From an uncultured Candidatus Saccharibacteria bacterium (GTDB lineage Bacteria; Patescibacteriota; Minisyncoccia; Phycocordibacterales; UBA12445), in contig CAZYTH010000003.1 in NCBI GenBank assembly GCA_964649715.1, forward strand, positions 4,713 through 68,712: a DNA stretch of 64,000 bases, given 5' to 3'. Below, in pieces: positions 9,939 to 50,484 of this stretch. Both the position numbers and the translations under genes were made by a program. Under the pieces are notes generated by a model that was not told the origin of the DNA, made no database searches, and was given only the letters and a program-made list of their open reading frames with translations. Numbering within the stretch: position 1 is the first letter of the stretch; each line of letters opens with the position of its first letter.

Positions 9939-10958
9939 TTAAACCGAAAAGTTACTTACAGCGTAAAGGTCGGAATCTGTACAATCCTCAGGGGTACTAT
10001 CATCAATTGCTTCTTCCAATACAACCTGATTTTGCTCTGGATTATTAACATCTGCTATTTTTATATTTTGGTCTAACAAAGGATTAATCATCACCCCACC
10101 AACGGGTATCGAAAGCTTTCCCTTGGACACCATATCAAGGAGTGTTCTTAGATCATCTTTTGAGAAAAAATCTATCGTTATTTTACCACCAAAGTCCCTC
10201 CTCTCAATATGCACCCTTGTTCCAAGCTTTTCTGTTAGTTTGCTTTCCATATCTAAAATATCAGGATCTACAATATATTCCTTTTTTCTAACCTTATCTG
10301 AAGCAATGTGTCTTGAGATAGATTCGGCCTCTCTAACCGTTAATTTCTTATAAATTATCTCCTTATAAAGAGTCATCTGCTCTTCCGGTCTATCACCAAG
10401 CATAAGAAGCGGTCGACAGTGCCCTTCGGTTATCTTGCTCCCAAGAATTCCCTCTTGTATATCTGGAGGCAGAGCTAATATTCTTATACTATTAGACACA
10501 TACTCGCGACTTTTTCCTATCTTGGCGGCTATCTCAATGTGTTTATAATTAAACTTTTCAGCAAGTTGCTGAAAGGCCTTAGCTCTATCTATTAAATTAA
10601 GATCTTCCCTTTGCAAGTTCTCGATTATTGCGAGTTCAAATTTTAAAGCATCTGACTGATCTCCGGTCCGTATAACCACTGGTACCTGCAAAAGACCAGC
10701 GAGTTTTGATGCACGCAGTCTTCTTTCTCCAGAAATTAATTCATACTCAACAGACAAACCACCATCGGGTGTTTCTATCTCTTTTCTCGTAGCCACAAGT
10801 GGCTGAAGAATACCGTACTGCTTAATAGAATCGGAAAGTTCCCTCAGTGACCTGTCTTCAAATTCTTTCCTGGGCTGAAACGGATTTGGCTTTATCTTTC
10901 CAACCTCTATCCAGAAGATAGAGTTACTTATACTATTCTTGCTTTCGATTGGTTCCAT
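9939..10958 (-). CDS. parB: ParB/Spo0J-family partition protein with a long C-terminal extension.
   Basis: ParB box (GILQPLVATRK...ELISGERRLRASKLAG) and an HTH region. No parA is adjacent. Confidence 0.8.
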   Translation of the reverse strand: MEPIESKNSISNSIFWIEVGKIKPNPFQPRKEFEDRSLRELSDSIKQYGILQPLVATRKEIETPDGGLSVEYELISGERRLRASKLAGLLQVPVVIRTGDQSDALKFELAIIENLQREDLNLIDRAKAFQQLAEKFNYKHIEIAAKIGKSREYVSNSIRILALPPDIQEGILGSKITEGHCRPLLMLGDRPEEQMTLYKEIIYKKLTVREAESISRHIASDKVRKKEYIVDPDILDMESKLTEKLGTRVHIERRDFGGKITIDFFSKDDLRTLLDMVSKGKLSIPVGGVMINPLLDQNIKIADVNNPEQNQVVLEEAIDDSTPEDCTDSDLYAVSNFSV

Positions 10959-11064
10959 GAGAATTTTTGTAATTTTAATTGATTATAGATAGATTCTAAC
11001 ACCAAAAATATCTTTTGCAAAAAAACTTTTTTTACTGTATATTTACATAATAAAATTAAAAATT

Positions 11065-11119
11065 GTCGCGGTGGCGGAATGGCAGACCTGCCTGCCGGCA
11101 GGCAGGCGCAATAGACTCG
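11065..11119 (+). pseudogene. partial duplicate of the 5' half of tRNA-Leu(CAA), roughly nt 1-34, interrupted by a 20-nt perfect palindrome.
   Basis: GTCGCGGTGGCGGAATGGCAGAC + CTGCCTGCCGGCAGGCAGGC + GCAATAGACTC. Apart from the insert it matches 11365-11398 with one mismatch. Confidence 0.8.
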
Positions 11120-11121
11120 AT

Positions 11122-11355
11122 ATGTTTTATGTTTACGCAATAAAAAGCATTAAGAGAAAGTATATTTACGTCGGATTGACAAATCATATAGAAAAACGAT
11201 TTAATCAACACAATACAGGCAAAGAGAGGACCACCAAACCTTATCTTCCATACAATTTGATTCACGTAGAAGAATTCAAATTGCGAGTGGAAGCAAGAAA
11301 AAGAGAAAAGTTTCTTAAATCAGGGTCTGGAAAAGAGTATTTGAAATCATTATAG
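11122..11355 (+). CDS. small stand-alone GIY-YIG nuclease-domain protein (UPF0213/YhbQ-like). The ORF-track start at 11071 lies inside the tRNA fragment, so the MFYVYA start is preferred.
   Basis: Y-V-Y motif, Y-V-G-x-T, R...H.N.G and a downstream E (MFYVYAIKS...YIYVGLTNHIEKRFNQHNTG). 78 aa. Confidence 0.75.
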   Translation: MFYVYAIKSIKRKYIYVGLTNHIEKRFNQHNTGKERTTKPYLPYNLIHVEEFKLRVEARKREKFLKSGSGKEYLKSL

Positions 11356-11364
11356 TAATATTTT

Positions 11365-11447
11365 GCCGCGGTGGCGGAATGGCAGACGCAATAGACTCAA
11401 AATCTATCGAGGGCAACCTCATGAGGGTTCGAGTCCCTCCCGCGGCA
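11365..11447 (+). tRNA. tRNA-Leu(CAA), class II with a long variable arm.
   Basis: Acceptor GCCGCGG/CCGCGGC, anticodon stem ATAGA/TCTAT with loop CTCAAAA, long variable arm, T-arm GAGGG-TTCGAGT-CCCTC and discriminator A. No encoded CCA. Confidence 0.9.
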
Positions 11448-11584
11448 CAACAAATCGCTGAAAAGCGATTTTTGTATACGCGGAGCAAGCAAACTTCTTT
11501 GCTTGCGAGGGGGACGAGAAGGGGTTGAGTATATTACGCCGAGCAATGCGAAGGCGGAATACGAAACCCGTACCGAATATGTAA

Positions 11585-11608
11585 TGTTCGAGTCCCTCCC
11601 GCGGCACA
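11585..11608 (+). repeat. direct repeat of the last 22-24 nt of tRNA-Leu (T-loop plus 3' acceptor), about 135 bp downstream of the tRNA. It has the form of an att-like remnant.
   Basis: GTTCGAGTCCCTCCCGCGGCACAA is identical to 11428-11450. Confidence 0.8.
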
Positions 11609-11924
11609 AAAACAAATGGACCGAATGTGAAAACATTCGGTGATTTTGTTTTGTAGGCGTCGGAGGGGCGAGAAAACCGGAAGCGGGTACCGTCGCCGAC
11701 GTAGCAAAGCGAAGTGGCGCACGGTCGCTGAGGCGTAGATCGAGAAATTTTTGTGTAACAAAAATATTCGTGATCGAATCCTCAACCAAAAAACGGGCAG
11801 GCCTCCAATGGCACAATAAAAAACATCTTTCTTTTAAATTTTGTAAACACTAAAAAATATCCGAGCAAGTGAAGTTTTTTTATGCTATTATTTAAATAAT
11901 TAAGAATTAAAAGATAATAAAAAA

Positions 11925-14747
11925 ATGCGAAGGAACATAAAAAACTTTTTCCCCATCATGCTCATTATCATGTGCACTTTTTGGGGAGTTGTGTCGTTTG
12001 CTCAAGAGACAGCAACCGCACCAAACGGGCCATCGGCGCCCGACATGGAAGTAGCGCAAAACCAAGCAAAATCAGAGGCAAGTAAAACGGCCGAAGATAG
12101 AGCCGCAGAAGAATCTGCGGGAATGAGGGCTCAGTTTAAAAGAGAGTTCGGTGCACCGCCGGAAGCTTTTCAAAAACACGAACCACAAAAACCACAATTC
12201 GAACAACCCCAAAGAGTTCCGGATGAAGCGAAAAAATATTTAACAGATGCAGAACTTATTCCGATATACTGTGCGATGACCAAATGGAAGACAGGGCAAT
12301 TCTTCGGTGCAATGAATGCTCTTAAAGAAAACATGTTGCCGGCAATGCAAAAAGCCAAAGATGTTTTGGGCATTACGCTACCTCTGCCCAATATCGACAA
12401 AATGATCGAGGACGGAAAAACAAAAATAAACACTGTATGTTCCACAAAAGTACTTTCCGAGGCCGAGGACACTGTTATGTCATTCACCACCATGGGTCAA
12501 GATCTTGATCAGAACGGGATCGGTGCCTTCATGACCGAATTTGAAAATAAAATGAAAGCAAAAGGCAATGAAATAAAAACAAAGATCGAGGCGATGGTGT
12601 TACCTTTAGTGGAAGAAGAAAAAGCCAAAATACAACCGGAAATAGAAAAAGAGGCGCATTTCTATGTTAAAAATAATATAAAATTTGACCGAGAACCAAG
12701 CCCAGCCGATATTACAGCGGTCAGGACACAAGTTGAAAATTATCTCAAACCAATCATAGAAGCCAAAAAACAGGAAATAACCCAAAAGATCCAATCCAGA
12801 ATAAACGAGATCAAAGATAAAGAAGTTGCGGAAATTGAAGGACTCGGAAAGATGTTCGAGGGAATGGATCAAAAAATAAACGATGCCTCTCAAAAAGGTC
12901 TTGAGGAATACGACCAGTATAAAAAAGAAGCGTTCAGGCTCAGGAAAGAAGTTGTCTTCAAAATACTCGATAAAAACTTAGATGAGGGACTAAAAAAACT
13001 GGATGAGGCAGACAAAGACATCGAAGACGCAAGAAAAGATGACCCTTCTTTAAAGTCTGTTAGTCAGATAAAGTCAGAGATAGCACAGGATAGAAAAAAC
13101 TTGGAATCAAAACTTGAAGTCGCCATGGAGGCTGGAGATGAAATATCTTTCCAGCAGGCGGTCAACGATTTCAAGACAAAATGGGAAGCAGCGAGGGTTG
13201 AAAGCGAAAAAGCCGCCGAACAATCCATGACAAAAGCATGCAATATAGCCAAAGCTGAATTCGGAAAAGCAAAAGGCCAAATGGAAAGCAATCTCGCCAA
13301 ATTGAACAATATACAAAAAAAATGCGAAGGTGTTTTTTCCGATGAGTGTTCAAGTATCGCCGAATTCGGAGACAGATTCGAGACGTTAAAGAACAAAATA
13401 TCTGACATAAGATCAGAAATGGATATGGCCGAAAAAATGTGTGCGGATACGAATATGACGGACAAAGCGAGCATGGTCGCTCTTATGAGAAAGATCCAAA
13501 ACGACGGCGAGGATCTTAAAACATACGGCGACTCCCTGAACGCCGAAAAAACAAGAGTTATCGCCGATTCTGCGGCCAAAGCGTGTTCACAAATAATTCC
13601 ACAAATGGAAGCCGCCAGAACCGAAATAATCAAAAACGACCTCCAGATACTCGAAAATAATTTCAAAAAATGCGAAGGAAAGAACACCGACGATTGCGAT
13701 ATCATAAATCAGGCTTCGCCAAAATTCAAAGAATTTTCCAAAGACTCTTCTTCCTTCTCAGAAAAGATCACTGAAATAGAAAATTTCTGCAAGAACCCAA
13801 CAGGGGAAGCTTTTGAAAAAATATCAATTAGCTGGAATATACTAAAGGAGGAAGGTAATGAACTTCGACTAAAAGGAAAAGAATTACAAAGCGAGATTGC
13901 CGTAACTTTGAGCGAAAAAGCAATCTGTAAGGCAATAGTGCCCCAGATCAACTCCGCAAGAATGGAAGTAACCGCGGGAATTAAAAAAGTTTCCGACACC
14001 CAAAACAACTGTTTCGGAAAGAATGACGAAAAATGTCTCGCAATAAACGCCCTAAAACCGAAACTTGAAGAAATAACAAAAAGATCGAATATTCTTCTAT
14101 CTAGACTGGATGTTTCCCTTTCCGCTTGTGCCAACCCGGGAATCGTAAAACCGAGCCAAGATTTTCTTACCAAAGTTGAACAAAGCGGTATAAAAGAAGA
14201 AGCTACCGCCTTGATAAAATTGGCCAAAGAGTTAGCCGACCTTCAATCAAAAGCCACTCTTTTTGGAAAAGGAATAAAAATAGAAGCTGAAGACGAAATG
14301 TCTACGAAACTTCTTCCCAAAACAGAAAGTTGGCACTCAAGAGAAGAGACGAATCCGAGCTGGAGACCCCCCTTCTTCGGAACGGGTGTTTGGTATCTAT
14401 CAAGGGGTGGAGAGTATCTTCAATACAGATTCGAAGCACCAATATCCGCAAACTATGATATTTGGGTAAGAGACTATGTGGATAATTTCCAGCCGGCCGG
14501 AGTAAGACGAGTCACATATTACATTAACGGCAACAAAGTGATCACTGCACCGGAAGTGACAATGAATAAAAATAAAATAGATGCGAAGATTGGATCATTT
14601 GGTTGGCACAAGATAGCCGGAGCATACAAAATAAATGGAGGAAGTAATATACTTAAAGTCGAAAAAGAAAAAACAACCTCCGGAGCAGCGATACTTGATG
14701 TATTCTATATAACCAACAATCCGAACGACATCCCCCCGGAACTATAA
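11925..14747 (+). CDS. large (940 aa) secreted coiled-coil protein with recurring Cys pairs and a C-terminal beta-sandwich-like domain that may bind carbohydrate or act as an adhesin.
   Basis: Signal peptide, long Lys/Glu-rich heptad-like region with repeated KKCEG...C / NNCFGKNDEKC modules, and a C-terminal NYDIWVRDYVDNF...ILDVFYITNN domain. Confidence 0.7.
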   Translation: MRRNIKNFFPIMLIIMCTFWGVVSFAQETATAPNGPSAPDMEVAQNQAKSEASKTAEDRAAEESAGMRAQFKREFGAPPEAFQKHEPQKPQFEQPQRVPDEAKKYLTDAELIPIYCAMTKWKTGQFFGAMNALKENMLPAMQKAKDVLGITLPLPNIDKMIEDGKTKINTVCSTKVLSEAEDTVMSFTTMGQDLDQNGIGAFMTEFENKMKAKGNEIKTKIEAMVLPLVEEEKAKIQPEIEKEAHFYVKNNIKFDREPSPADITAVRTQVENYLKPIIEAKKQEITQKIQSRINEIKDKEVAEIEGLGKMFEGMDQKINDASQKGLEEYDQYKKEAFRLRKEVVFKILDKNLDEGLKKLDEADKDIEDARKDDPSLKSVSQIKSEIAQDRKNLESKLEVAMEAGDEISFQQAVNDFKTKWEAARVESEKAAEQSMTKACNIAKAEFGKAKGQMESNLAKLNNIQKKCEGVFSDECSSIAEFGDRFETLKNKISDIRSEMDMAEKMCADTNMTDKASMVALMRKIQNDGEDLKTYGDSLNAEKTRVIADSAAKACSQIIPQMEAARTEIIKNDLQILENNFKKCEGKNTDDCDIINQASPKFKEFSKDSSSFSEKITEIENFCKNPTGEAFEKISISWNILKEEGNELRLKGKELQSEIAVTLSEKAICKAIVPQINSARMEVTAGIKKVSDTQNNCFGKNDEKCLAINALKPKLEEITKRSNILLSRLDVSLSACANPGIVKPSQDFLTKVEQSGIKEEATALIKLAKELADLQSKATLFGKGIKIEAEDEMSTKLLPKTESWHSREETNPSWRPPFFGTGVWYLSRGGEYLQYRFEAPISANYDIWVRDYVDNFQPAGVRRVTYYINGNKVITAPEVTMNKNKIDAKIGSFGWHKIAGAYKINGGSNILKVEKEKTTSGAAILDVFYITNNPNDIPPEL

Positions 14748-24734: not shown

Positions 24735-24811
24735 AGCGGATATACTAACAAAACGTTATTTTTTAGTCAAATTGCCAAAAGACAGACTGAGCAATTATTG
24801 GTGACTTGATA

Positions 24812-24883
24812 TACACACAGAATGGATCGAACCTTCGACCTTTCCTAAGCGAACGGAACACTCTATCGCTGAACTATGTGTGC
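24812..24883 (-). pseudogene. degenerate tRNA-like sequence (72 nt) with several non-canonical features. It may be a tRNA pseudogene or an unusual tRNA.
   Basis: Folds as acceptor GCACACA/TGTGTGT, D-stem GTTC/GAGT with a loop lacking G18G19, anticodon stem TTCCG/AGGAA carrying a G·A mismatch and loop TTCGCTT with U at position 37, and T-arm GAAGG-TTCGATC-CATTC with a G·A mismatch. Confidence 0.3.
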
Positions 24884-25340
24884 AGACCCATAAATCATAG
24901 AGCAAAAAAACACAATAAAGAAAACCCGACAAAATGCCGGGTTTAAAAAAACAAAGACTACTCTTCCTTGAAATTATCAAAAAGGAAGCGTATGCCCTCG
25001 TCGGTGGCAAGAAGGCAAAGCCCCCTCGCGAGAAGAAAACTCTTAAGACCATGGATATCCTCCTTTCCTCGCCAACTATTGACGAGAGAACTAGCCCCAA
25101 ACACCCACCCAATCTCCAGACAAAGAACTTCTAGTCGATTGAGTTCCTTATTGAGTTCCCTGAAGAATCTCTCCTCCTTGTTCTGCATTCAAACACCCCC
25201 CTTCTTTTTCTGTTAATGTTCTAAATACGCCAGTCTTATACACCTAAAAAATTAAAAAGTCAAACAAAAAAAGAACAAACACCACAGAACATCAAAAATA
25301 TTGATTTTAATTTATCTTTTGGTTAGTATAGATATCTAAT

Positions 25341-25411
25341 GGGCCTATAGTATAGCGGTAGAACGCATCCATGGCATGGATGAGGTCGGGGTTCGACTCC
25401 CCGTAGGTCCA
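25341..25411 (+). tRNA. tRNA-Ala(GGC).
   Basis: Acceptor GGGCCTA/TAGGTCC with a G3·U70 pair, anticodon stem CATCC/GGATG with loop ATGGCAT, T-arm CGGGG-TTCGACT-CCCCG. Confidence 0.85.
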
Positions 25412-27087
25412 TAAATAGAGGCAAAACGGGTTTCAAGAAATTGAAATCCGTTTTTGCATTTAAAAATAAGGCTACTATCAGAAATAAAAAGTTCGGAAAA
25501 GATAGTTCTAGCAATTAGCTCTTTTTCTTGTAAATTTGCATTTAAGTAAAAGAATAGGCCATCTTTTATGAGTTCGGAAAGAATTACGACATCTCTAATA
25601 ACTTCCCCCATTGAAACGTCTGATGAAATCTCTTCGTTTTGTATTTCAAGAATCTCAGCATTAAGATTGTCCTCTTCTTCCATGAACGTTTTTGGAGAAT
25701 ATGCTCCCGTCATAAGCAAAGATAATTTATTAGTTCTCAGATATGATAATTTTTCTCTTATTCTTTTCTTTCTACCCTCTCCTTCTTCAATATTTTTAAT
25801 CCTTTTTTCTTCAAATAGCGAGACGTCTTCACTTGTCACAATATTTAAGTTGTTCTTTTCTTCGTCTCTCAACTTTAACATAGACATAAAATCCACAATT
25901 TTTTCTTCCAGAAAATTACCGTTAAAATTTTTCTTAGAATTTTTACAACCTTTAATGCATCTAGAACCATAATACTGGATACCCTTCTGAACATATGGTG
26001 TATATGCACGCCCACACTCAGAACAACGGGCAACGCCACGATAAGGTAACTCTAATTTATTTGTATAACGCAAGCTTACATTCTTCTTCGAGAGTCCTTT
26101 TTGAACTTTATTAAAAAGTTCCTCTGAAATTATGGCCTTGTGACTTTTGCTTGGTATATAAACACCATCACTATTTAAAGTTTTTCCTGTATAAAATTTA
26201 TTTCTGAGTATTTTTTGAACAAGAGTTGCAGTAATTGGTCTGGTGACTTTTTCGATCTTACTCTCGACATCAGTTTCTTCATTTTCCAATATCTCCCCCT
26301 CTGTTCTTCTTCTGCGCATTGGTACTGTCGTCATGCCATGTTCATTAGCCCACCGAGCCAAATCAGCAACGCTCCACTCACCGGTAGTATAATATTCGAA
26401 TAGTTTCTTTACAAAAGGACCCCGAACAGGATCTACCGGCTTATTTTCTGAATTTCCTTCATTTAAATAACCTATCGGAGCCCGATATGTGCAAATCCCG
26501 TCTGCTCGCATTTTTTGAGTAGTAAGCTTAATTTTCTCACTTGTTACCCGAGAATAATGTTCTGCAAACATGCCATCTATGTCCATATGGAGAGCACCCG
26601 AGCTACTTTTCTCATATTTTGCTTGAACAAAACGGAAATCGCATCCATTTTTAATCAACTTACGAATCAAAGTATCATCTGCTTTATTTCTACTGATGCG
26701 ATCCCAACAAAGACAGATAACACCCTTAAAAAATTTCTTACTCAAAAAATAAGTAAGTCTCTGAAATTTTGGTCGGTCTATTCGATATTGGACTAAACCC
26801 TCTTCTGTGAAATTGATATCTTCATCTTGTTTGTAACCAGATTGTTTCTCTGAAATTATTCCGTTATGACAAAAACCTTTTATATCAACGGGGGCAATGG
26901 GCAATTTTTCTTTCTTTGCAAACTTGGAATTTTCGAATTTCTGGTATTCCAAAGAATTTTTCTGTGAATCGGCCTCATCTGTACTCTTTCTGTTGTAAAT
27001 TAAATAACCATCACGATACTTACCGCTCAATATTTCCTTCTCGATATCTTTTTGTCTTTTGTTTATTTGTGTTTTATTTTTTGACAT
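25345..27087 (-). CDS. large serine recombinase (phage-integrase type). The ORF reads through the antisense of tRNA-Ala for its last ~24 codons.
   Basis: N-terminal resolvase domain with the catalytic Ser (YNRKSTDEADSQKNSLEYQ), a recombinase domain, a zinc ribbon (CSECGRAYTPY...C..GC) and a C-terminal coiled coil. Confidence 0.85.
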   Translation of the reverse strand: MSKNKTQINKRQKDIEKEILSGKYRDGYLIYNRKSTDEADSQKNSLEYQKFENSKFAKKEKLPIAPVDIKGFCHNGIISEKQSGYKQDEDINFTEEGLVQYRIDRPKFQRLTYFLSKKFFKGVICLCWDRISRNKADDTLIRKLIKNGCDFRFVQAKYEKSSSGALHMDIDGMFAEHYSRVTSEKIKLTTQKMRADGICTYRAPIGYLNEGNSENKPVDPVRGPFVKKLFEYYTTGEWSVADLARWANEHGMTTVPMRRRRTEGEILENEETDVESKIEKVTRPITATLVQKILRNKFYTGKTLNSDGVYIPSKSHKAIISEELFNKVQKGLSKKNVSLRYTNKLELPYRGVARCSECGRAYTPYVQKGIQYYGSRCIKGCKNSKKNFNGNFLEEKIVDFMSMLKLRDEEKNNLNIVTSEDVSLFEEKRIKNIEEGEGRKKRIREKLSYLRTNKLSLLMTGAYSPKTFMEEEDNLNAEILEIQNEEISSDVSMGEVIRDVVILSELIKDGLFFYLNANLQEKELIARTIFSELFISDSSLIFKCKNGFQFLETRFASIYGPTGSRTPTSSMPWMRSTAIL

Positions 27088-33384: not shown

Positions 33385-36171
33385 TTAAAATCCAAACCAA
33401 GACCAGAAACGAGACCATACACTTTTCTTCACAACCGGAGGTTCTGTGTGTGTTGTGCTTGCGGTAAGTGTGGGCGTGGTTGTGGTACTAATAATTGGCA
33501 CAGGAGAGCCCGTTATCCAAGAGGCCAGACGACTAAACCAGGATAATTTCGATTGCTCCATTCGTGGAGGTGTCCTTTGGTCAGAAAATTCTTTATCTAA
33601 ATCTTTTGATTCAATAACGATCGATTCCTTAACAATAGACTCCTTCATTGGTTGAGCTTGCTGAGTTTGTTCTTCTGTTTTTTCCTGTACCTGAATAGCT
33701 TTTGGCTGTTCTACTACTTTCCCTGTAATTTGTTCTTTAGGGCTGGTAATTAATTCTCCTTTTTTATCTGTTTTAGCAATAAATAATTTTAGGGATTTAA
33801 GCTTATTCGCATCCATATTTTCTAAGGCTGAAAATTTAGAGTTAATATTGATCGGAATACTAGATAATGCACCCAAATTATTAAACCAATTATTTATTAC
33901 ATTCATAGATAATATTAACCCCATGGTATTATCTTCTCCAACATACCCACCCGAAGGTATTCCTATAAACTTACCGTTCTTTAAATAGGCGCCACCGCCA
34001 GAACTTCCGTGCTCTAAAATAGCAGTAGTTTTAAAATAATCTCCACTGTCGTCGATTCCACTAAAATCACCACTTGTGTACGTTAACTTTTTACCGAAAG
34101 CTGCAGGGTAACCGTAAGTTAAAATCTTTTCACCTAAAGCAATACTTATATTGCCCCTTGTGATATCAATGGGTGTAAAATTTATATTTCCGGAATTTCT
34201 AATTTTTAATAAAGCGATATCTTTATCCGGTGATGTCTTAACAACGTCAGCCACAAACCATCCATAGGGTTCATCGTCAAAATTGTTTATAAATCCAACA
34301 TAACAGCCTACGGTCTCAGAAATAACATGTTTATTGGTCAGAATAATTCCGATCGCATTAATTATCGTACCAGACCCCTGCGATGCAGATTGCGCATCAA
34401 CCGGACAAATAAGTTTTACTGTGGCCTTTAAAATCTTATCCTGGTTTACAACTTCTATAGACTCATCTGGTGGAGGTTGTGGCGGTCTATTTGGGGGTGT
34501 GCAGTATCTATCTGTAATGGGTGGTGCTGTTTGAACGTTAGGACAATCATAGGTTTTAGTACAAGTTCGGCTTTGTATTCCAGAAATAGAACATTCTCCC
34601 CAATAAGAACAGGTCCATTCATCAGCTGTACAAGATGGAATATAGGAACAAGATTGGGTCGTTATTGGCGAAGCAACTCCACCTTCACAATTTGATATCT
34701 TATTACATGTTCTTGATTGTGTTCTGTTTGCAGAACAAGCAGACCAACCACCACAGGACCAATCGCTAGAAGTACAAGGTGGCATATAAGTGCAATTCTG
34801 ACTTAAAATTGGACCACCACCAACACAACCATTCGGCAATGAAGAAATTATTGTTCTTGTTTGGGTTCCGTTAGAAGAACATGTGGACCATTCAGAATAT
34901 GTCCACGAAGTACATGTGGGTGGAATATATGTACAGTTTTGAATTATCACTGGCTCATATGTTCCGGTACAGATATCTGAATTTTTATTACATACTCTGG
35001 TTTGTTTACCACTAGGATTACACGCACCCCAAACACCGCAAGTATAATCATCAGCGTCACATGCTGGGCTACAAGATTGGGTTGTTGCCGGAGAGGGGGT
35101 ATCGATTAAAGAACAATCATTTGTCTTTGTGCATGTTCTATTCTGAGATCCACTGCGAGAGCAGGTGCTCCATGATTCGCATGTCCATGTGTCAGATATA
35201 CAGGCAGGGGTACATGCTTGGGTCGTAATTGGGGGAGGAGTTGTTATTCCAGGACAATCCAAAGACATGTAGCATGATCTTGTTTGCGAACCGTCTATTG
35301 AACATGAATTCCAATCATTACATATCCATGTATCAGCAGTACAAGTAGGAACATAGGTACAAGACTGCGTTGTGGCTGGTGATGGATCGTTTGTAAGCGG
35401 ACAATCATATGTCCTCGTGCATGTTCTGGTCTGGGTGCCATTAGACTGACATCCGGCCCAGCTTCCGCAAGACCAAGTATCAGCAGTACATTCTGGTGTG
35501 CAAGATTGAGTCGTTTCCGGCGACGGTGTATCTACCGCAGGACAATCTAATGCCTTGGTACAGGCTCTAGATTGATTACCGTACAGAGAACAAGAACTCC
35601 ATGACCCACAATCCCAAATATCTTGAGCGCAATGATCCTTAAGGAAAAAGCTACCCGATAGATAAGATGATGGCTGAGCGGTATTGTAACTCACCTCCCT
35701 ATAACAAGTATCTGTGGTGCATTTTTGTGCACAACTATCAACTTCACAAATTGGGGCCCTACCAAAGACTGTAGGAATTTCAATTTTCAGATTAACCGCC
35801 TTATTGTCGTAGCAAGATGGATCGGCGTATAATGAAGAAAAATAATTTAATGGGACTTTTAATATTATCTGGGAATCACTCCAAGAAATAACATTACTGT
35901 TAGATACTTCGGGAATTGAAGCGTTGACATAACTAACCCCGCAGCTATCGTTGATATACGCATACCCACTAACGTAACCCAACCCACTACTGTTGCGCTG
36001 AAAATGCGTAAAACGCCAAGAGCTATTAAAATTACCACCATTTATAGTAATGGTATCACCAGGAGAAATAATACTTGGGGTAATAGATGTAATAAAAGGC
36101 TCCCCGACTGCTAACGACGTGCCACCAAAAACGAAGAACAACGTAACCACAAACAACAGAATTTTTTTCAT
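33385..36171 (-). CDS. 928-aa secreted multidomain protein. It has an N-terminal IPT/TIG-like domain, eight tandem thrombospondin type-1-like Cys repeats, a trypsin-like (S1/Do-type) serine protease domain and a Thr-rich, Trp-rich C-terminal tail.
   Basis: Signal peptide. Repeats of about 47 aa follow the pattern W-x-C-x-x-W-S-x-C-S-x(3-4)-Q-(S/T)-R-x-C-T...DCP...TTQSC. Protease motifs: TNKHV (His), DIALLKI (Asp) and GSSGGGAY (Ser). Confidence 0.8.
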   Translation of the reverse strand: MKKILLFVVTLFFVFGGTSLAVGEPFITSITPSIISPGDTITINGGNFNSSWRFTHFQRNSSGLGYVSGYAYINDSCGVSYVNASIPEVSNSNVISWSDSQIILKVPLNYFSSLYADPSCYDNKAVNLKIEIPTVFGRAPICEVDSCAQKCTTDTCYREVSYNTAQPSSYLSGSFFLKDHCAQDIWDCGSWSSCSLYGNQSRACTKALDCPAVDTPSPETTQSCTPECTADTWSCGSWAGCQSNGTQTRTCTRTYDCPLTNDPSPATTQSCTYVPTCTADTWICNDWNSCSIDGSQTRSCYMSLDCPGITTPPPITTQACTPACISDTWTCESWSTCSRSGSQNRTCTKTNDCSLIDTPSPATTQSCSPACDADDYTCGVWGACNPSGKQTRVCNKNSDICTGTYEPVIIQNCTYIPPTCTSWTYSEWSTCSSNGTQTRTIISSLPNGCVGGGPILSQNCTYMPPCTSSDWSCGGWSACSANRTQSRTCNKISNCEGGVASPITTQSCSYIPSCTADEWTCSYWGECSISGIQSRTCTKTYDCPNVQTAPPITDRYCTPPNRPPQPPPDESIEVVNQDKILKATVKLICPVDAQSASQGSGTIINAIGIILTNKHVISETVGCYVGFINNFDDEPYGWFVADVVKTSPDKDIALLKIRNSGNINFTPIDITRGNISIALGEKILTYGYPAAFGKKLTYTSGDFSGIDDSGDYFKTTAILEHGSSGGGAYLKNGKFIGIPSGGYVGEDNTMGLILSMNVINNWFNNLGALSSIPININSKFSALENMDANKLKSLKLFIAKTDKKGELITSPKEQITGKVVEQPKAIQVQEKTEEQTQQAQPMKESIVKESIVIESKDLDKEFSDQRTPPRMEQSKLSWFSRLASWITGSPVPIISTTTTPTLTASTTHTEPPVVKKSVWSRFWSWFGF

Positions 36172-46741: not shown

Positions 46742-46825
46742 AAAATATAGGTTCAATAAAAAAATTGACAAATTGCATAACGTGTTATAAGGTAAATTAG
46801 TAATAGAACTTTAAAAGGAGGTTTT

Positions 46826-47059
46826 ATGATCTCAACGATTGGCTTCATCGTCTTTGGGGCACTGCTTGCATACGAATTCATCGCCTACTGGCTGGGGATC
46901 TTGGGCACTTATCTTTCGGCCACCAAAAGTATCCAAGAAGATGGTCTTCGGGGGGTCATCGGCAAAGCGGAAGACATCTGGGTCCGATTCTGGACGAGGT
47001 CTCTCGTTCCAATCCTGATGATTTGTTTCTGTTTCTACCTCCGAAATATCGGCCTCTGA
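46826..47059 (+). CDS. small two-transmembrane protein at the edge of a GC-rich island.
   Basis: AAAGGAGG Shine-Dalgarno 5 nt upstream of the ATG. GC content is well above the flanks. Confidence 0.45.
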   Translation: MISTIGFIVFGALLAYEFIAYWLGILGTYLSATKSIQEDGLRGVIGKAEDIWVRFWTRSLVPILMICFCFYLRNIGL

Positions 47060-47095
47060 TATTTTCTTGGCCACACAGAAGCCCTGCACACAAAA

Positions 47096-47185
47096 TGCGG
47101 GGTTTTTCTTTGCCCTTTTTATGAGCGAGGTTCAACCTCGCTCATAAAAAAAAGAAAACCCCGCACTTACGTGAAGTTGCGGGGT
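47096..47185. repeat. compound GC-rich hairpin set. It acts as a minus-strand terminator for 47199..47630 and also contains nested and alternative stems.
   Basis: TGCGGGGTTTTTCTTT pairs with AAAGAAAACCCCGCA. The inner palindrome is ATGAGCGAGGTT-c-AACCTCGCTCAT. CCCCGCA can alternatively pair with the downstream TGCGGGG. Confidence 0.6.
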
Positions 47186-47198
47186 CGGTAAAGAACAA

Positions 47199-47630
47199 TC
47201 AGAAGGAGGGGATCCGAGCAAACGGACTGCTCTTGGAGGTCATCGGGGCGCAACCCCGAAGTCGCCAGTCGGTCTCGGTCTTGGAAACTGGGGTGGCGGG
47301 TGGGGTCTTCGGCTTGGCGACCGGAGCATTGAATCCCGGATCTTCCCAGACAAGACCTCCTCGAGGCGTGGTGTCGAGAGGCACATTCGCCTCCTCGTCG
47401 ACCTCGTCGATTTCCTGAATTTCAAAAGCCACCGTCGCGAAGAAGCGAGACTTTTCCTTCTTTTCCCTCCTCCCTTCGTCGTCCCAGCTCATCGGCCTAC
47501 CGCGGGACTTGGCGCGAATGCGGGCGAAGTGCGACTTGATCGCCTTCTCCTTCACTCCGCCCTTCGTCATCACCACCTTCACCGCCTCGGCCAGATACTC
47601 GAACCACCAGTCGTATAATTCCCAATCCAT
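47199..47630 (-). CDS. hypothetical protein encoded in strongly GC-rich DNA (roughly 55-60% by eye, against an AT-rich background), likely recently acquired.
   Basis: GC-ending codons (ctc, gtc, gcc, ggc) unlike the neighbours. A terminator lies downstream. The protein MDWELYDWWFEYLAEAVKVV... has no recognised motif. Confidence 0.45.
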   Translation of the reverse strand: MDWELYDWWFEYLAEAVKVVMTKGGVKEKAIKSHFARIRAKSRGRPMSWDDEGRREKKEKSRFFATVAFEIQEIDEVDEEANVPLDTTPRGGLVWEDPGFNAPVAKPKTPPATPVSKTETDWRLRGCAPMTSKSSPFARIPSF

Positions 47631-47860
47631 ATTCTTCTCCTTTCAAAAATTGTATTTTCAATTATCTATTATATATTATAAACCTATTTTATATGTTTTG
47701 TCAAGATTTTTGTTGTTTCCCCTTTTGTTTTAGGGCTATTTTTAAAAAATATCCTATCCCCCATCTGAGTCCGACAACCTATCTGAATTACAAAAAAAAC
47801 GGGTAGTTTAAAAAAGCACCTTACAAAGGTGCTTCGTTTTCAACAAAAAAATTAGTTTTA

Positions 47861-48115
47861 TTATTTTTTAAGTGGCCCAATAAGACCTTCGGCTTCGGCC
47901 AAAATTTTTGTCTTCTCCTCCTCAGACAGTCCAATAATCTTTTCCATTCCGATAAGCTCTCCGCTTCTTTTCAGATAACACTCGTGGTTGTGCGAGTCCC
48001 AAGAAAGAGGATTATCACCACCACTCTCTCTGGAGACACCACGAAACCAGCACAGATAAGCCAATAATTCTCTAAAATAAAAAGATTTAAGGGCATTAAA
48101 TGTCTTATCCATCAA
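47861..48115 (-). CDS. small hypothetical protein.
   Basis: ORF only. Confidence 0.3.
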   Translation of the reverse strand: MMDKTFNALKSFYFRELLAYLCWFRGVSRESGGDNPLSWDSHNHECYLKRSGELIGMEKIIGLSEEEKTKILAEAEGLIGPLKK

Positions 48116-48303: not shown

Positions 48304-50484
48304 TTATTTAGCGATTGTCACAGCTTCATCAAACTTTATTGAAAGTAGCTTAGACACACCGTCACCCCCCATAGTTACACCATAAAGTATTCCCGCGCGA
48401 GACATAGTCTCTCTATTGTGAGTAACGACAATAAGCTGAGAGATTTTTGAAAGATTCTCGAGCATATCTCCATATTTCTTTGAGTTAGACTCATCTAGTG
48501 CCGCATCTGTCTCGTCAAGAACTAAAAATGGAGGCGGATTCACCTGGGATACCGCAAAAAGAAGAGCAATTGACGTAAGCGCTCTTTCTCCTCCAGAAAG
48601 CATCGTGAGGCCTTTTATTTTTTTTCTCGGCAAATTAACATTTATATCTATGCCAGCCTCAGGCTTCTTTTCGTCTTTTTCCATAAAATTTTCACTTTTT
48701 GGATTTTCAGCATTTTCTTCGAACAATCTCTCTTCGGTTGTTTTCTTCTTTTCGGGGAAATTAAGAGTGAGCTCCGCTGAACCTCCACCGAACATCGACA
48801 CAAAAAATTCCTGAAATTGCTTATTTATTTTTTCCAACCCCTTTTTAAATTCAATGTCTATCTTTTCAGAAAGTTCCAACATCAAAGAACGCAAGCCTTC
48901 TGCACTGTCGACAAGATCGGCAACTTCTTTCTCTAAAAACTTTTCTCTCTCTTCGGTCTCATTATATTCTTTAAGGACATCTTCTCCCGCATTTCCCATA
49001 TCTTCAAGTCTTATTTTTATTCTTTCTATCTTTCTCCTTCTTTCTTCCTGCATAATCCTTGGCTCGTTATCTATTTGTGTTTCGATTCCTCCAAAATCCT
49101 TATAATTAACAGCCTCCCTTCCAGCCAATACGACCGCCTCGGTAAGTTCCATCTTAAAAGCACCCTCTTCCAGCAAAAGTTTTTCTTCTTTAGCCCGAAC
49201 AGCATTTAATTGTGCCAATATTTCGCTTTTTTCCGCACGCAAAAGATACAGCGCCCTCTCCGAATCCCTGAATTCATCCTTTTTATTCTCTAAACCAGAT
49301 TTGATCGAGGATATTTCACCACCAACTCGCGATTCGCTTTCGCACAGAGAGACGATCATCTTCTCAAATTCCCCCCGCTTGGTTCTTAACTCCGAAACTT
49401 CCCTTTCTCTCTCTTTCCTAAGCTCATCTTCCCTGCTTTCATCTAATGTCTTCACTACCACTTGTCCGCAATAAGAACAGACTTTCTCCCCCTTATCATT
49501 TACTTTTATGTTTTTATTATGATTCCCCCTCTCCATGTCACACTTTATTTCTATCAAAGCATCTAATCTGCCAATCTCTCTTTCTAGGTTGGTTTTTTTG
49601 TTTCTAATTTCCAGAAGATTTACCTCTAAATCCTTCATTTTGTCGGAAGATTCCTTTGGCAAAACATTGACTTCTGCAAGCATCTGGCTCAACCTCGCTG
49701 TTTCCGCATCTATATTCTTTATTTGTTCTTCAGGTAAGGTTCGATTCTTTAAAATATCCGCTCTGAAATTATTCAGGTAATTATCTTCTCTTTTAAAATA
49801 TTCTTTATATAGGTTTATTAGCTCGAGTCTCATCTCCTCCGCCTTTTTTACTTGCTCAATCTGTTTTCTGAGAAAACGAAGATGGGGAGCTATTTCTCTT
49901 CTTAAAGACTCTACCTCTTTTATATTTTCTTTGGTCTTTTGGAGCTTTTTTTCGCTTTCCTCTTTTTTATATTGATAAACCTTAAGACCAAGGGCATCTT
50001 CTATCATCTCTCGTCTCTCAAATATATTTGCATTCAAAATCCTATCAGCTTCACCCTGACTAATTATATGATGACTAGACACACCCAAAGACACAGCCGA
50101 GAGGAGTTCTATCACATCTTTTAAGCGAACCTTGCTCCCATTTATATAATATTCGTTTGTTCCATCACGATAGATATGGCGAGATATTGCGACCTCGTCG
50201 AACTCCAAATTGAATTTTCTCTCTTTGTTATCAAACACAACCAGAACGCTTGCGTGGTTCAGTTTTGAGTAACCGGCAGAACCGTTGAAGATTAGGTCTT
50301 CTCCCCTCTTCCCTCTAAGCGATTTCAGTGACTGTTCTCCAAGCGCCCAGCGAAGCGCCTCGGCTACGTTTGATTTACCAGATCCATTTGGACCCACAAC
50401 CGCCGTTATAGAAGACTCAAAGTCTAAAACCGTCTTTTTTGCAAAAGACTTAAAACCAAGCAATTCTACTCGTTTTAGATTCAC
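48304..50484 (-). CDS. smc: short (726 aa) SMC-family ATPase. A CxxC motif sits where a hinge would be expected, in the middle of the coiled coil.
   Basis: N-terminal head (LLGFKSFAKKTVLDFESSITAVVGPNGSGKSNVAEALRWALGEQS). C-terminal signature and D-loop (LSGGERALTSIALLFAV...FLVLDETDAALDESN...GVTM). KVCSYCGQVV lies in the coiled-coil midpoint. Confidence 0.8.
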   Translation of the reverse strand: MNLKRVELLGFKSFAKKTVLDFESSITAVVGPNGSGKSNVAEALRWALGEQSLKSLRGKRGEDLIFNGSAGYSKLNHASVLVVFDNKERKFNLEFDEVAISRHIYRDGTNEYYINGSKVRLKDVIELLSAVSLGVSSHHIISQGEADRILNANIFERREMIEDALGLKVYQYKKEESEKKLQKTKENIKEVESLRREIAPHLRFLRKQIEQVKKAEEMRLELINLYKEYFKREDNYLNNFRADILKNRTLPEEQIKNIDAETARLSQMLAEVNVLPKESSDKMKDLEVNLLEIRNKKTNLEREIGRLDALIEIKCDMERGNHNKNIKVNDKGEKVCSYCGQVVVKTLDESREDELRKEREREVSELRTKRGEFEKMIVSLCESESRVGGEISSIKSGLENKKDEFRDSERALYLLRAEKSEILAQLNAVRAKEEKLLLEEGAFKMELTEAVVLAGREAVNYKDFGGIETQIDNEPRIMQEERRRKIERIKIRLEDMGNAGEDVLKEYNETEEREKFLEKEVADLVDSAEGLRSLMLELSEKIDIEFKKGLEKINKQFQEFFVSMFGGGSAELTLNFPEKKKTTEERLFEENAENPKSENFMEKDEKKPEAGIDINVNLPRKKIKGLTMLSGGERALTSIALLFAVSQVNPPPFLVLDETDAALDESNSKKYGDMLENLSKISQLIVVTHNRETMSRAGILYGVTMGGDGVSKLLSIKFDEAVTIAK

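Follow-up and report, generated by a model that had tools for sequence, protein, structure and literature searches.

Why does a short, strongly GC-rich island sit between two conserved genes of a bacterium whose DNA is otherwise rich in A and T? The question is raised by a 64-kb window (the whole 64,000-nucleotide stretch of contig CAZYTH010000003.1 analyzed here) from an uncultured Candidatus Saccharibacteria bacterium of the Patescibacteria. Between the genes for RNase R (rnr) and an SMC protein lie three small open reading frames (ORFs), called p77, p143 and p84 after the lengths of their products, and the first two of them make up the island. The first-pass annotation suggested that the island was a small cassette acquired recently by horizontal transfer. 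The results presented here point elsewhere. The three genes look like a resident accessory module whose GC-rich allele was probably exchanged between related lineages, that is, an allelic replacement and not the insertion of a new cassette.

The compositional contrast is extreme. In 400-nt windows, GC content reaches 0.605 at position 47201, while the mean of the 64 kb is 0.370 with a standard deviation (sd) of 0.048. The peak lies about 4.9 sd over the mean and is the highest in the entire window, which bears out the abrupt rise that had first been judged by eye. The island spans 46826-47630. At a resolution of 60 nt, GC climbs from about 46820 and its drop is complete by about 47610, and the two steps coincide with the start codons of p77 (46826, plus strand) and p143 (47630, minus strand). 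In its called frame, p143 has most GC at third codon positions, then at first and then at second ones (GC1/GC2/GC3 of 0.56/0.49/0.74), and the values for p77 are 0.46/0.41/0.63. For the 47 other ORFs of the window, GC3 is 0.33 +/- 0.065, and the highest value, 0.51, belongs to an ORF overlapping a tRNA. The remark that the 143-aa ORF uses GC-ending codons unlike its neighbors was therefore confirmed by the codon-usage analysis. A synonymous-codon score gave -0.26 for p143 and -0.25 for p77 against +0.10 +/- 0.05 in the other ORFs, nearly 7 sd lower, and all 13 lysine codons of the island genes are AAG (29% in the background). The spacers upstream of p77 and p143 are host-typical, with GC of 0.23 and 0.27. 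No GC3 gradient runs from the island into rnr, p84 or SMC in the flanking codons measured (0.40 in the last 30 codons of rnr, 0.37-0.43 in p84, and 0.27 in the last 30 codons of SMC). Because its composition is native, p84 lies outside the island. The spacer between p77 and p143 is raised to 0.45 (139 nt) because terminator stems lie inside it. The earlier description of terminator-like island ends has to be reversed: the terminators sit in the middle, between convergent genes, and the ends are AT-rich promoters.

The possibility that the window genome recently gained a small foreign cassette by insertion between rnr and SMC draws on this discontinuity of composition and codon usage and on the distribution of the genes. 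No homologue of p143, p77 or p84 was found by tblastn, or by profile hidden Markov models run on six-frame ORFs, in any of 80 species representatives, which came from a genome scan and whose SMC is 48-75% identical to that of the window. Additionally, the junction accepts unrelated and sometimes GC-rich cargo elsewhere. Nevertheless, at least four other divergent lineages of Paceibacteria, handled here as L001, L003/L090, L088 and L089, have the module at this very junction, with orthologues, gene order, promoters and terminators the same. In L003, the order is SMC, p84 and p143, then the convergent p77 and rnr. L088 has the same module order with three extra small ORFs, followed by genes for a peptidyl-prolyl isomerase and a formyltransferase (fmt) as in the window; its p143 homologue is only about 31-36% identical to p143. 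The succession of p84 and p143 also recurs in L001 (where synteny covers what the contig spans), L091, L092, L090 and L089. Synonymous sites of SMC are saturated between the window and L001, L003 and L088, and since order, promoters and terminators agree across such distances, the module appears to have long been resident at the junction. Even L001, the closest GC-rich relative, is already at a synonymous divergence (dS) of about 0.94. The locus also lacks an integrase, a tRNA and meaningful flanking direct repeats: between 46742 and 48303 there are no mobility-gene ORFs and no tRNA, and only weak AT-rich direct repeats were seen. As far as comparison of the sequences goes, the conserved synteny largely refutes a recent cassette, and we regard this origin as improbable. 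What survives of the proposed horizontal acquisition is the atypical composition, a history separate from that of the flanks (see the breakpoint near 47920 below) and the variable junction. What does not survive is the recent arrival of a new cassette. The search of relatives gave absence in L008, L009 and the 78 other representatives, and presence at the same site in L001, L003/L090, L088 and L089, which are equally distant.

Abrupt GC steps in a metagenome-assembled genome (MAG) can also arouse the suspicion of a chimera, in which an 800-bp piece of another organism was built into the contig during assembly or binning. This is hardly credible here. The GC-rich genes are homologous and syntenic to genes of the relatives, and the steps fall at start codons, beside conserved native promoters. 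Moreover, an AT-rich p84 followed by a GC-rich p143 was independently assembled in Logan SRR27197511, JGI 3300009782 and ENA ERZ761564, all of the L001 type. Three such assemblies with the same step rule out a generic assembly artefact and so answer the suspicion of a chimera indirectly.

Within the resident module, the segment that carries p143 does not share the history of its surroundings. On the SMC side, L001 groups with L003, with amino acid identities of 94% in the SMC C-terminus and 67% in p84 and dS of 1.6 and 0.95, while dS to the window is 2.4-3.4 in these regions. In p143, it is the window that groups with L001 (amino acid identity of 64% versus 48-53%; dS of 0.94 versus saturated). 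The nearest relative changes near 47950-47900 in a sliding identity plot. In a test on three-taxon informative sites, the maximum chi-square was 74.5 at about 47920, a value that was reached in 0 of 1000 permutations: 147 sites joined L001 to L003 and 63 joined the window to L001 on the SMC side, and the corresponding numbers on the p143 side were 64 and 160. The AT-rich spacer between p84 and p143 has 30 sites for window plus L001, 16 for L001 plus L003 and 6 for window plus L003, and the terminators have 20, 4 and 7. As these two regions agree, shared GC bias cannot explain the grouping of the window with L001. Judged from these alignments, the 3' end of p84, p143 and the terminators together form a segment with a phylogeny that differs from that of the flanks, which points to an exchange of the GC-rich allele by homologous recombination. 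The L001-type contigs end just past p143, and the second breakpoint lies beyond them. Patescibacteria are described as naturally competent, as retaining homologous recombination and as exchanging genes mostly among themselves (PMC12455944).

According to the preferred reading, an old module at the SMC/rnr junction would have had its GC-rich p143 segment swapped between related lineages by homologous recombination. Less certainly, a GC-richer member of the shared gene pool would be where the GC-rich composition was gained, and this composition would still be only partly ameliorated. The codon-position values of p143 are those expected from Muto-Osawa-type relations for a gene equilibrated at a genome GC of about 58-60%, and Paceibacteria with flanks of 57-63% GC are present among the relatives. 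Between the window and L001, 19 of 82 comparable third positions differ between G or C (S) and A or T (W); a rough two-state estimate then places the ancestral GC3 at about 0.86, which is possible. The junction also demonstrably takes in GC-rich DNA. Import from a GC-richer pool is favored over maintenance in place, within the broader and better supported view of a resident module with a recombining allele. There are, however, observations that weigh against it. No member of the p143 family was found in a GC-rich genome, and searches of 5.8 and 1.8 billion sequences brought up only about seven family proteins. The composition changes exactly at the two start codons. Since the AT-rich promoter spacer and the terminators were co-inherited, the exchanged allele must already have been a GC-rich gene body with AT-rich sequence around it, and this is not what would be expected of a donor whose genome is GC-rich. 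GC3 of the module is over the local background in every lineage, which suggests a force that acts in place. With three usable taxa, the recombinant is unpolarized, so that either L001 or L003 could be the replaced one, and selection on GC3 would also lower the dS between the window and L001.

These objections lead to the main competing explanation, namely that the module is native and that a gene- or locus-specific force keeps its coding sequences GC-rich. One candidate for such a force is strong GC-biased gene conversion (gBGC) at a recombination hot spot. Another is selection for codons that end in G or C, acting, for example, through mRNA stability against AU-preferring RNases or through rare-codon tuning of expression. 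The GC3 values of the five lineages are collected in Table 1.

Table 1. GC3 of module genes and of their local background in the window and its relatives
Lineage and gene	GC3	Background GC3
Window p143	0.74	0.33
Window p77	0.63	0.33
L001 / L091 / L092 p143	0.73-0.77	0.37-0.41
L088 p143 homologue	0.53	0.39-0.40
L088 116-aa ORF	0.63	0.39-0.40
L088 p77	0.59	0.39-0.40
L003 / L090 p143	0.44-0.45	0.24-0.30
L003 p77	0.33	0.24-0.30
L089 p143 homologue	0.43	0.40 and 0.22 (neighbors)

In all five lineages, module GC3 is over background to a varying degree, as maintenance in place would have it. The excess is +0.41 in the window, +0.35 in L001, +0.15 to +0.2 in L088, +0.15 for p143 of L003 and slight in L089. 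The values of p143 and p77 are thus at or over background everywhere, in very unequal amounts, and p77 of L003 (GC3 0.33) is the sole unelevated case, which speaks against a general force. The GC step matches the coding-sequence boundaries of both genes, while the co-inherited promoter spacer stays at 0.27 GC, and a GC3 of 0.73-0.74 has been kept in both the window and L001 despite a dS of about 0.94. Recombination, which gBGC requires, is demonstrated in the same segment. According to Lassalle et al. (2015, PMC4450053), bacterial genes that recombine should have a higher GC3 under gBGC, and the locus resembles the pattern described there in being a recombining segment with raised GC, most strongly at third positions. 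The magnitude here is far larger. A GC3 shift of +0.41 far exceeds the average by which recombinant genes differ from non-recombinant ones in bacteria, as described there, and the composition steps at the boundaries of the genes, without a GC3 gradient into their neighbors. Selection on codons fits poorly with GC1 and GC2, which are raised too and look like the result of mutation or conversion pressure. RNA-structure selection is not the cause, as mRNA folding z-scores were +0.10, -0.30 and +1.24. An attempt to polarize the synonymous sites found S in L003 at 52% of the sites at which S is common to the window and L001, and at 45% of those at which W is common to them; because L003 is saturated, amelioration and maintenance are not separable in this way. 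Taken together, a force keeping a native module GC-rich in place seems possible but rather unlikely. The stronger statement, that the GC-richness is actively maintained in the gene bodies of several lineages, in otherwise AT-rich genomes, by unusually strong gBGC at the SMC/rnr hot spot or by codon selection in two strongly promoted genes, and is not a relic of transfer, is a shade more doubtful. If it were true, the locus would exemplify an extreme and sharply bounded gene-specific optimum of base composition in bacteria. In either case, it offers a compact test case for gene-level GC, with one and the same orthologous gene at GC3 0.43-0.77 on backgrounds of 0.25-0.40 in the relatives.

The exchange of a GC-rich allele within a resident module can be set beside the classical picture of genomic islets. 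Compositionally atypical islets are associated with the amelioration model of Lawrence and Ochman. The locus shares with them a sharp discontinuity of GC and codon usage, ORFans and a patchy distribution. It differs in being only 0.8 kb long, without an integrase, tRNA or direct repeats, and in having orthologues at the same locus in divergent relatives, which indicates allelic replacement or an old module and not insertion. Its host is AT-rich and the locus itself GC-rich, while most acquired genes are rich in A and T, as noted in PMC4450053.

The sequence features of the module are listed in Table 2.

Table 2. Features of the p77/p143/p84 module, in coordinates of the 64-kb window
Feature	Position	Strand	Description
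p77 promoter-like region	46765..46791	+	TTGACA (46765-46770), 15-nt spacer, TGtTATAAG, extended -10 type; read from sequence
p77 Shine-Dalgarno AGGAGG	46816..46821	+	4 nt ahead of ATG; kept in L003 and L088
p77	46826..47059	+	77 aa, small membrane protein, GC3 0.63
p77 intrinsic terminator	47078..47111	+	stem GAAGCCCTGCA / TGCGGGGTTTT with T-run
Perfect 17-bp palindrome	47116..47150		TTTTTATGAGCGAGGTT-C-AACCTCGCTCATAAAAA, T and A runs on both sides
p143 intrinsic terminator	47146..47188	-	CCCCGCA, 12 nt, TGCGGGG, then TTTTCTTTTTTTT (minus-strand reading)
p143	47199..47630	-	143 aa, soluble protein, GC3 0.74
p143 Shine-Dalgarno AGGAG	47637..47641	-	6 nt ahead of ATG; kept in all five lineages
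p143 promoter	47675..47704	-	TTGACA, 18 nt, TATAAT; 12/12 consensus matches
p84 terminator hairpin	47808..47836	-	AAGCACCTT / AAGGTGCTT with T-run
p84	47861..48115	-	84 aa, all-helical, GC3 0.39
Inferred recombination breakpoint	47900..47950		SMC side: L001 with L003; p143 side: L001 with window

It might be asked whether the two ORFs of the island are genes at all. GC-rich sequence in a 37% GC genome may mark a structured non-coding RNA, as it often does in AT-rich genomes, with the ORFs as by-products of the GC-richness, and several overlapping ORFs do exist in other frames. This is very improbable in the present case. No Rfam family was matched at its gathering score, and the sub-threshold matches were hairpin-driven hits to terminators, with E values up to 10. 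The folding z-scores given above are all near zero, and it is the protein that is conserved, through synonymous variation and indels that keep the frame. The codon alignment of p143 contains several in-frame indels and has synonymous differences at most codons of the invariant C-terminal motif; between the window and L001, the nonsynonymous divergence dN is 0.31 and dS is 0.94 (dN/dS of about 0.33). The coding status of p143 follows from a frame that is kept through indels, from the synonymous changes and this ratio, and from the conserved promoter, Shine-Dalgarno sequence and terminator. Its TTGACA and TATA(T/C)AAT boxes show little or no variation across the window, L001, L003, L090 and L088, and the consensus promoter would predict strong transcription. 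In L003 and L088, the homologues of p77 are likewise preceded by TTGACA/TATAAT-like boxes and an AAGGAGG Shine-Dalgarno sequence. The promoter of p77 in the window was not called by the promoter scan, as its spacer is below 16 nt. A hairpin equivalent to the p84 terminator is found upstream of the p143 promoter in L003, L090 and L088, and p143 is therefore a transcription unit of its own. By this evidence, p143 and p77 are real protein-coding genes, convergent and, from their signals, separately transcribed. This has value for annotation, since two "hypothetical" ORFs of a MAG turn out as conserved genes and a suspicious GC step is very probably not a chimera.

The spacer between the convergent genes contains a set of nested hairpins, as had been described: the CCCCGCA sequence (47159-47165), its two TGCGGGG partners (47096-47102 and 47178-47184) and a 17-bp palindrome are all present. 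The 144-nt spacer folds far better than its shuffles, with z-scores of -8.3 on the plus and -7.4 on the minus strand. The compound terminator consists of two gene-specific intrinsic terminators with a common CCCCGCA/TGCGGGG stem and the palindrome between them. The p77 terminator is laid out as CCCTGCA, 7 nt and TGCGGGG, followed by TTTTTCTTT; an equivalent hairpin with a T-run occurs in L001, L003 and L088, and in the same three relatives the p143 terminator is nearly invariant. The palindrome, which is absent from L001, L003 and L088 and hence window-specific, is probably an additional bidirectional terminator. This arrangement is similar to ordinary back-to-back Rho-independent terminators between convergent genes in having a GC-rich stem and a U-tract after each gene, kept in relatives. 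It differs in that both terminators have the same 7-nt stem sequence, so that alternative pairings are possible, and in the perfect palindrome inserted between them. Nothing in the spacer pointed to a regulatory switch, and it reads as ordinary back-to-back termination.

The homology search of the 143-aa protein led to a very small family, P0002-P0007, whose full-length members (160 and 161 aa) are 52% and 46% identical to p143. A search of 1.8 billion representatives brought only three more members, all distant, and no further ones came to light when viral, genome and metagenome contigs were scanned with the alignments of the family. The distant p143 members have three motifs in common and an invariant C-terminal peptide, D-x-R-x-R-x-C-A-P-x-T-S-K-S-S-P-F-x-x-I, which in the window is the 20-mer TDWRLRGCAPMTSKSSPFARI. 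The AlphaFold2 (AF2) model of p143 has helices at residues 3-21, 27-41 and 49-80, followed by a variable disordered part. Its confidence (predicted local distance difference test, pLDDT) is low, at 57, and the model was therefore left out of the fold search. The C-terminal 20-mer may serve as a docking peptide, and it provides a tractable handle for a partner search in this uncharacterized family. Deletions specific to p143 of the window were considered as phylogenetic markers and dropped as uninformative, because the outgroup P0004 carries the long form.

The 77-aa ORF had been described as a membrane protein with a perfect Shine-Dalgarno sequence, and both points hold. Hydropathy places hydrophobic spans at about residues 1-27 and 59-77, and two spans are present in all homologues, of which those in L003 (57% identity) and L088 (30%) occupy the corresponding position. 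By these signs, p77 is a conserved small membrane protein with two transmembrane (TM) segments and its ORF a genuine coding gene. Homologues of p84 always adjoin p143, and their composition is native-like in every lineage seen. The AF2 model of p84 consists of three helices (pLDDT 89.9) and has no significant fold match in the PDB (best E = 3.2). A weak but near full-length profile match of p84 to 2LTD (E = 0.058) suggested a PC4-like, single-stranded DNA-binding protein such as YdbC (DUF2128). This lead was rejected and the match is probably spurious, as the AF2 fold is all-helical and not beta-beta-beta-beta-alpha. The genes had been said to lack a known function, and the searches agree: p143, p77 and p84 have no match in Pfam, PHROGs, PADLOC or NCBIfam, and no PDB sequence profile was matched by p143 or p77, or confidently by p84. 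The proteins of the window have no recorded names or accessions. An anti-phage or phage origin of the module found no PADLOC match, and the only PHROGs match was to phrog_6524 (unknown function) at E = 9e-4.

The p84/p143/p77 set is a lineage-restricted accessory module at a hypervariable SMC/rnr junction, in a small group of Paceibacteria (Patescibacteria, candidate phyla radiation or CPR). The relatives of its SMC mark the window as part of a MAG of the Patescibacteria (Paceibacteria/Parcubacteria). In the window, the module is flanked by the genes for RNase R (TIGR02063, 697 bits) and for an SMC that is short, at 726 aa (TIGR02168, 548 bits). The convergent SMC/rnr pair is adjacent in 56 of the 80 representatives, and the gap between the two genes, which is 7-3567 bp long, holds unrelated cargo. 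The cargo at the junction is different in L008 and L009, although these relatives match L003 and L088 in their closeness to the window (SMC 74-76%). Hot spots where integration or recombination occurs between conserved core genes are a known kind of locus. The junction resembles them in that conserved convergent genes flank variable cargo in 56 relatives and that a recombination breakpoint lies at the cargo edge. Here, however, three conserved genes with promoters of their own make up the cargo, a small module and not a set of mobile-element or defense genes. The kind of feature is thus already known, as a compositional islet or accessory ORFans at a hot spot flanked by core genes, while the family is new and tiny. 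The recombination landscape has been reviewed (PMC11879095). The junction is now documented as a hypervariable, recombining site in Paceibacteria, which fits the reported exchange among Patescibacteria. A replication terminus or dif site was considered as the cause of the variability and set aside, since no extremum of the cumulative GC skew falls there. A dif-like AT-rich string at about 47660-47685, which overlaps the p143 promoter, was judged to be due to chance.

The cargo in other relatives is diverse. A Y-family polymerase-like gene, an aminotransferase, toxin-antitoxin-like pairs and ORFans were observed in the gaps. In each of the loci L008-L087, SMC lies at about 10001-12280, and the gap comes after it. 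L017 carries an unrelated 255-aa ORFan at the junction (12420-13187) with a GC of 0.59 and a GC3 of 0.76, next to flanks of 0.37 GC; it matched nothing in Pfam, PHROGs or PADLOC. GC-rich cargo at the SMC/rnr junction is therefore not unique to the window. Four further gaps (L041 12254-12681, L027 4602-5117, L020 12266-13006 and L029 12242-12625) are 380-740 bp long and reach a GC of 0.43-0.49, compared with about 0.35-0.39 in their flanks; they contain only implausible-looking ORFs. Neither these gaps nor the L017 cargo gave an Rfam match or any similarity to the window or to one another. The four gaps may be unknown non-coding elements.

The module itself has extra ORFs in L088 (2453-4342) and L089 (257-406), which encode 48 aa, 49 aa with a single TM segment and 116 highly charged aa. 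The 49-aa ORF lies between p84 and the p143 homologue in both lineages. The 116-aa ORF follows the p143 homologue of L088 and has a GC3 of 0.63. The SMC of the window (48304-50484, minus strand) scores just below the 567-bit cutoff of TIGR02168, and its best stretch is formed by the N-terminal 309 residues. In the window and all relatives, SMC is about 716-760 aa long, compared with 1181 model positions in TIGR02168, and its coiled coil appears to be strongly shortened in this clade.

Other parts of the window have peculiarities of their own. The second-highest GC patch (0.515, 11365-11612, in the context 11071-11816) contains a tRNA-Leu(CAA) gene, which is the only Rfam match in the patch. 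A repeat of the last 27 nt of this gene (11427-11453), 96% identical to them, is found 159 nt downstream (11586-11612), and a GIY-YIG-like ORF of 94 aa (11071-11355) lies just upstream. The repeat looks like a duplication of the attachment-site (att) type, left by integration at the 3' end of a tRNA gene. Two divergent tRNA-Ala genes with the anticodons CGC and GGC are located about 450 bp apart at 24811-25412. Finally, a 928-aa ORF on the minus strand (33385-36171) has a GC2 of 0.52, well over its GC1 of 0.38 and GC3 of 0.30, which is unusual for this genome; its product may be of low complexity or repeat-rich, or the frame may be wrong.

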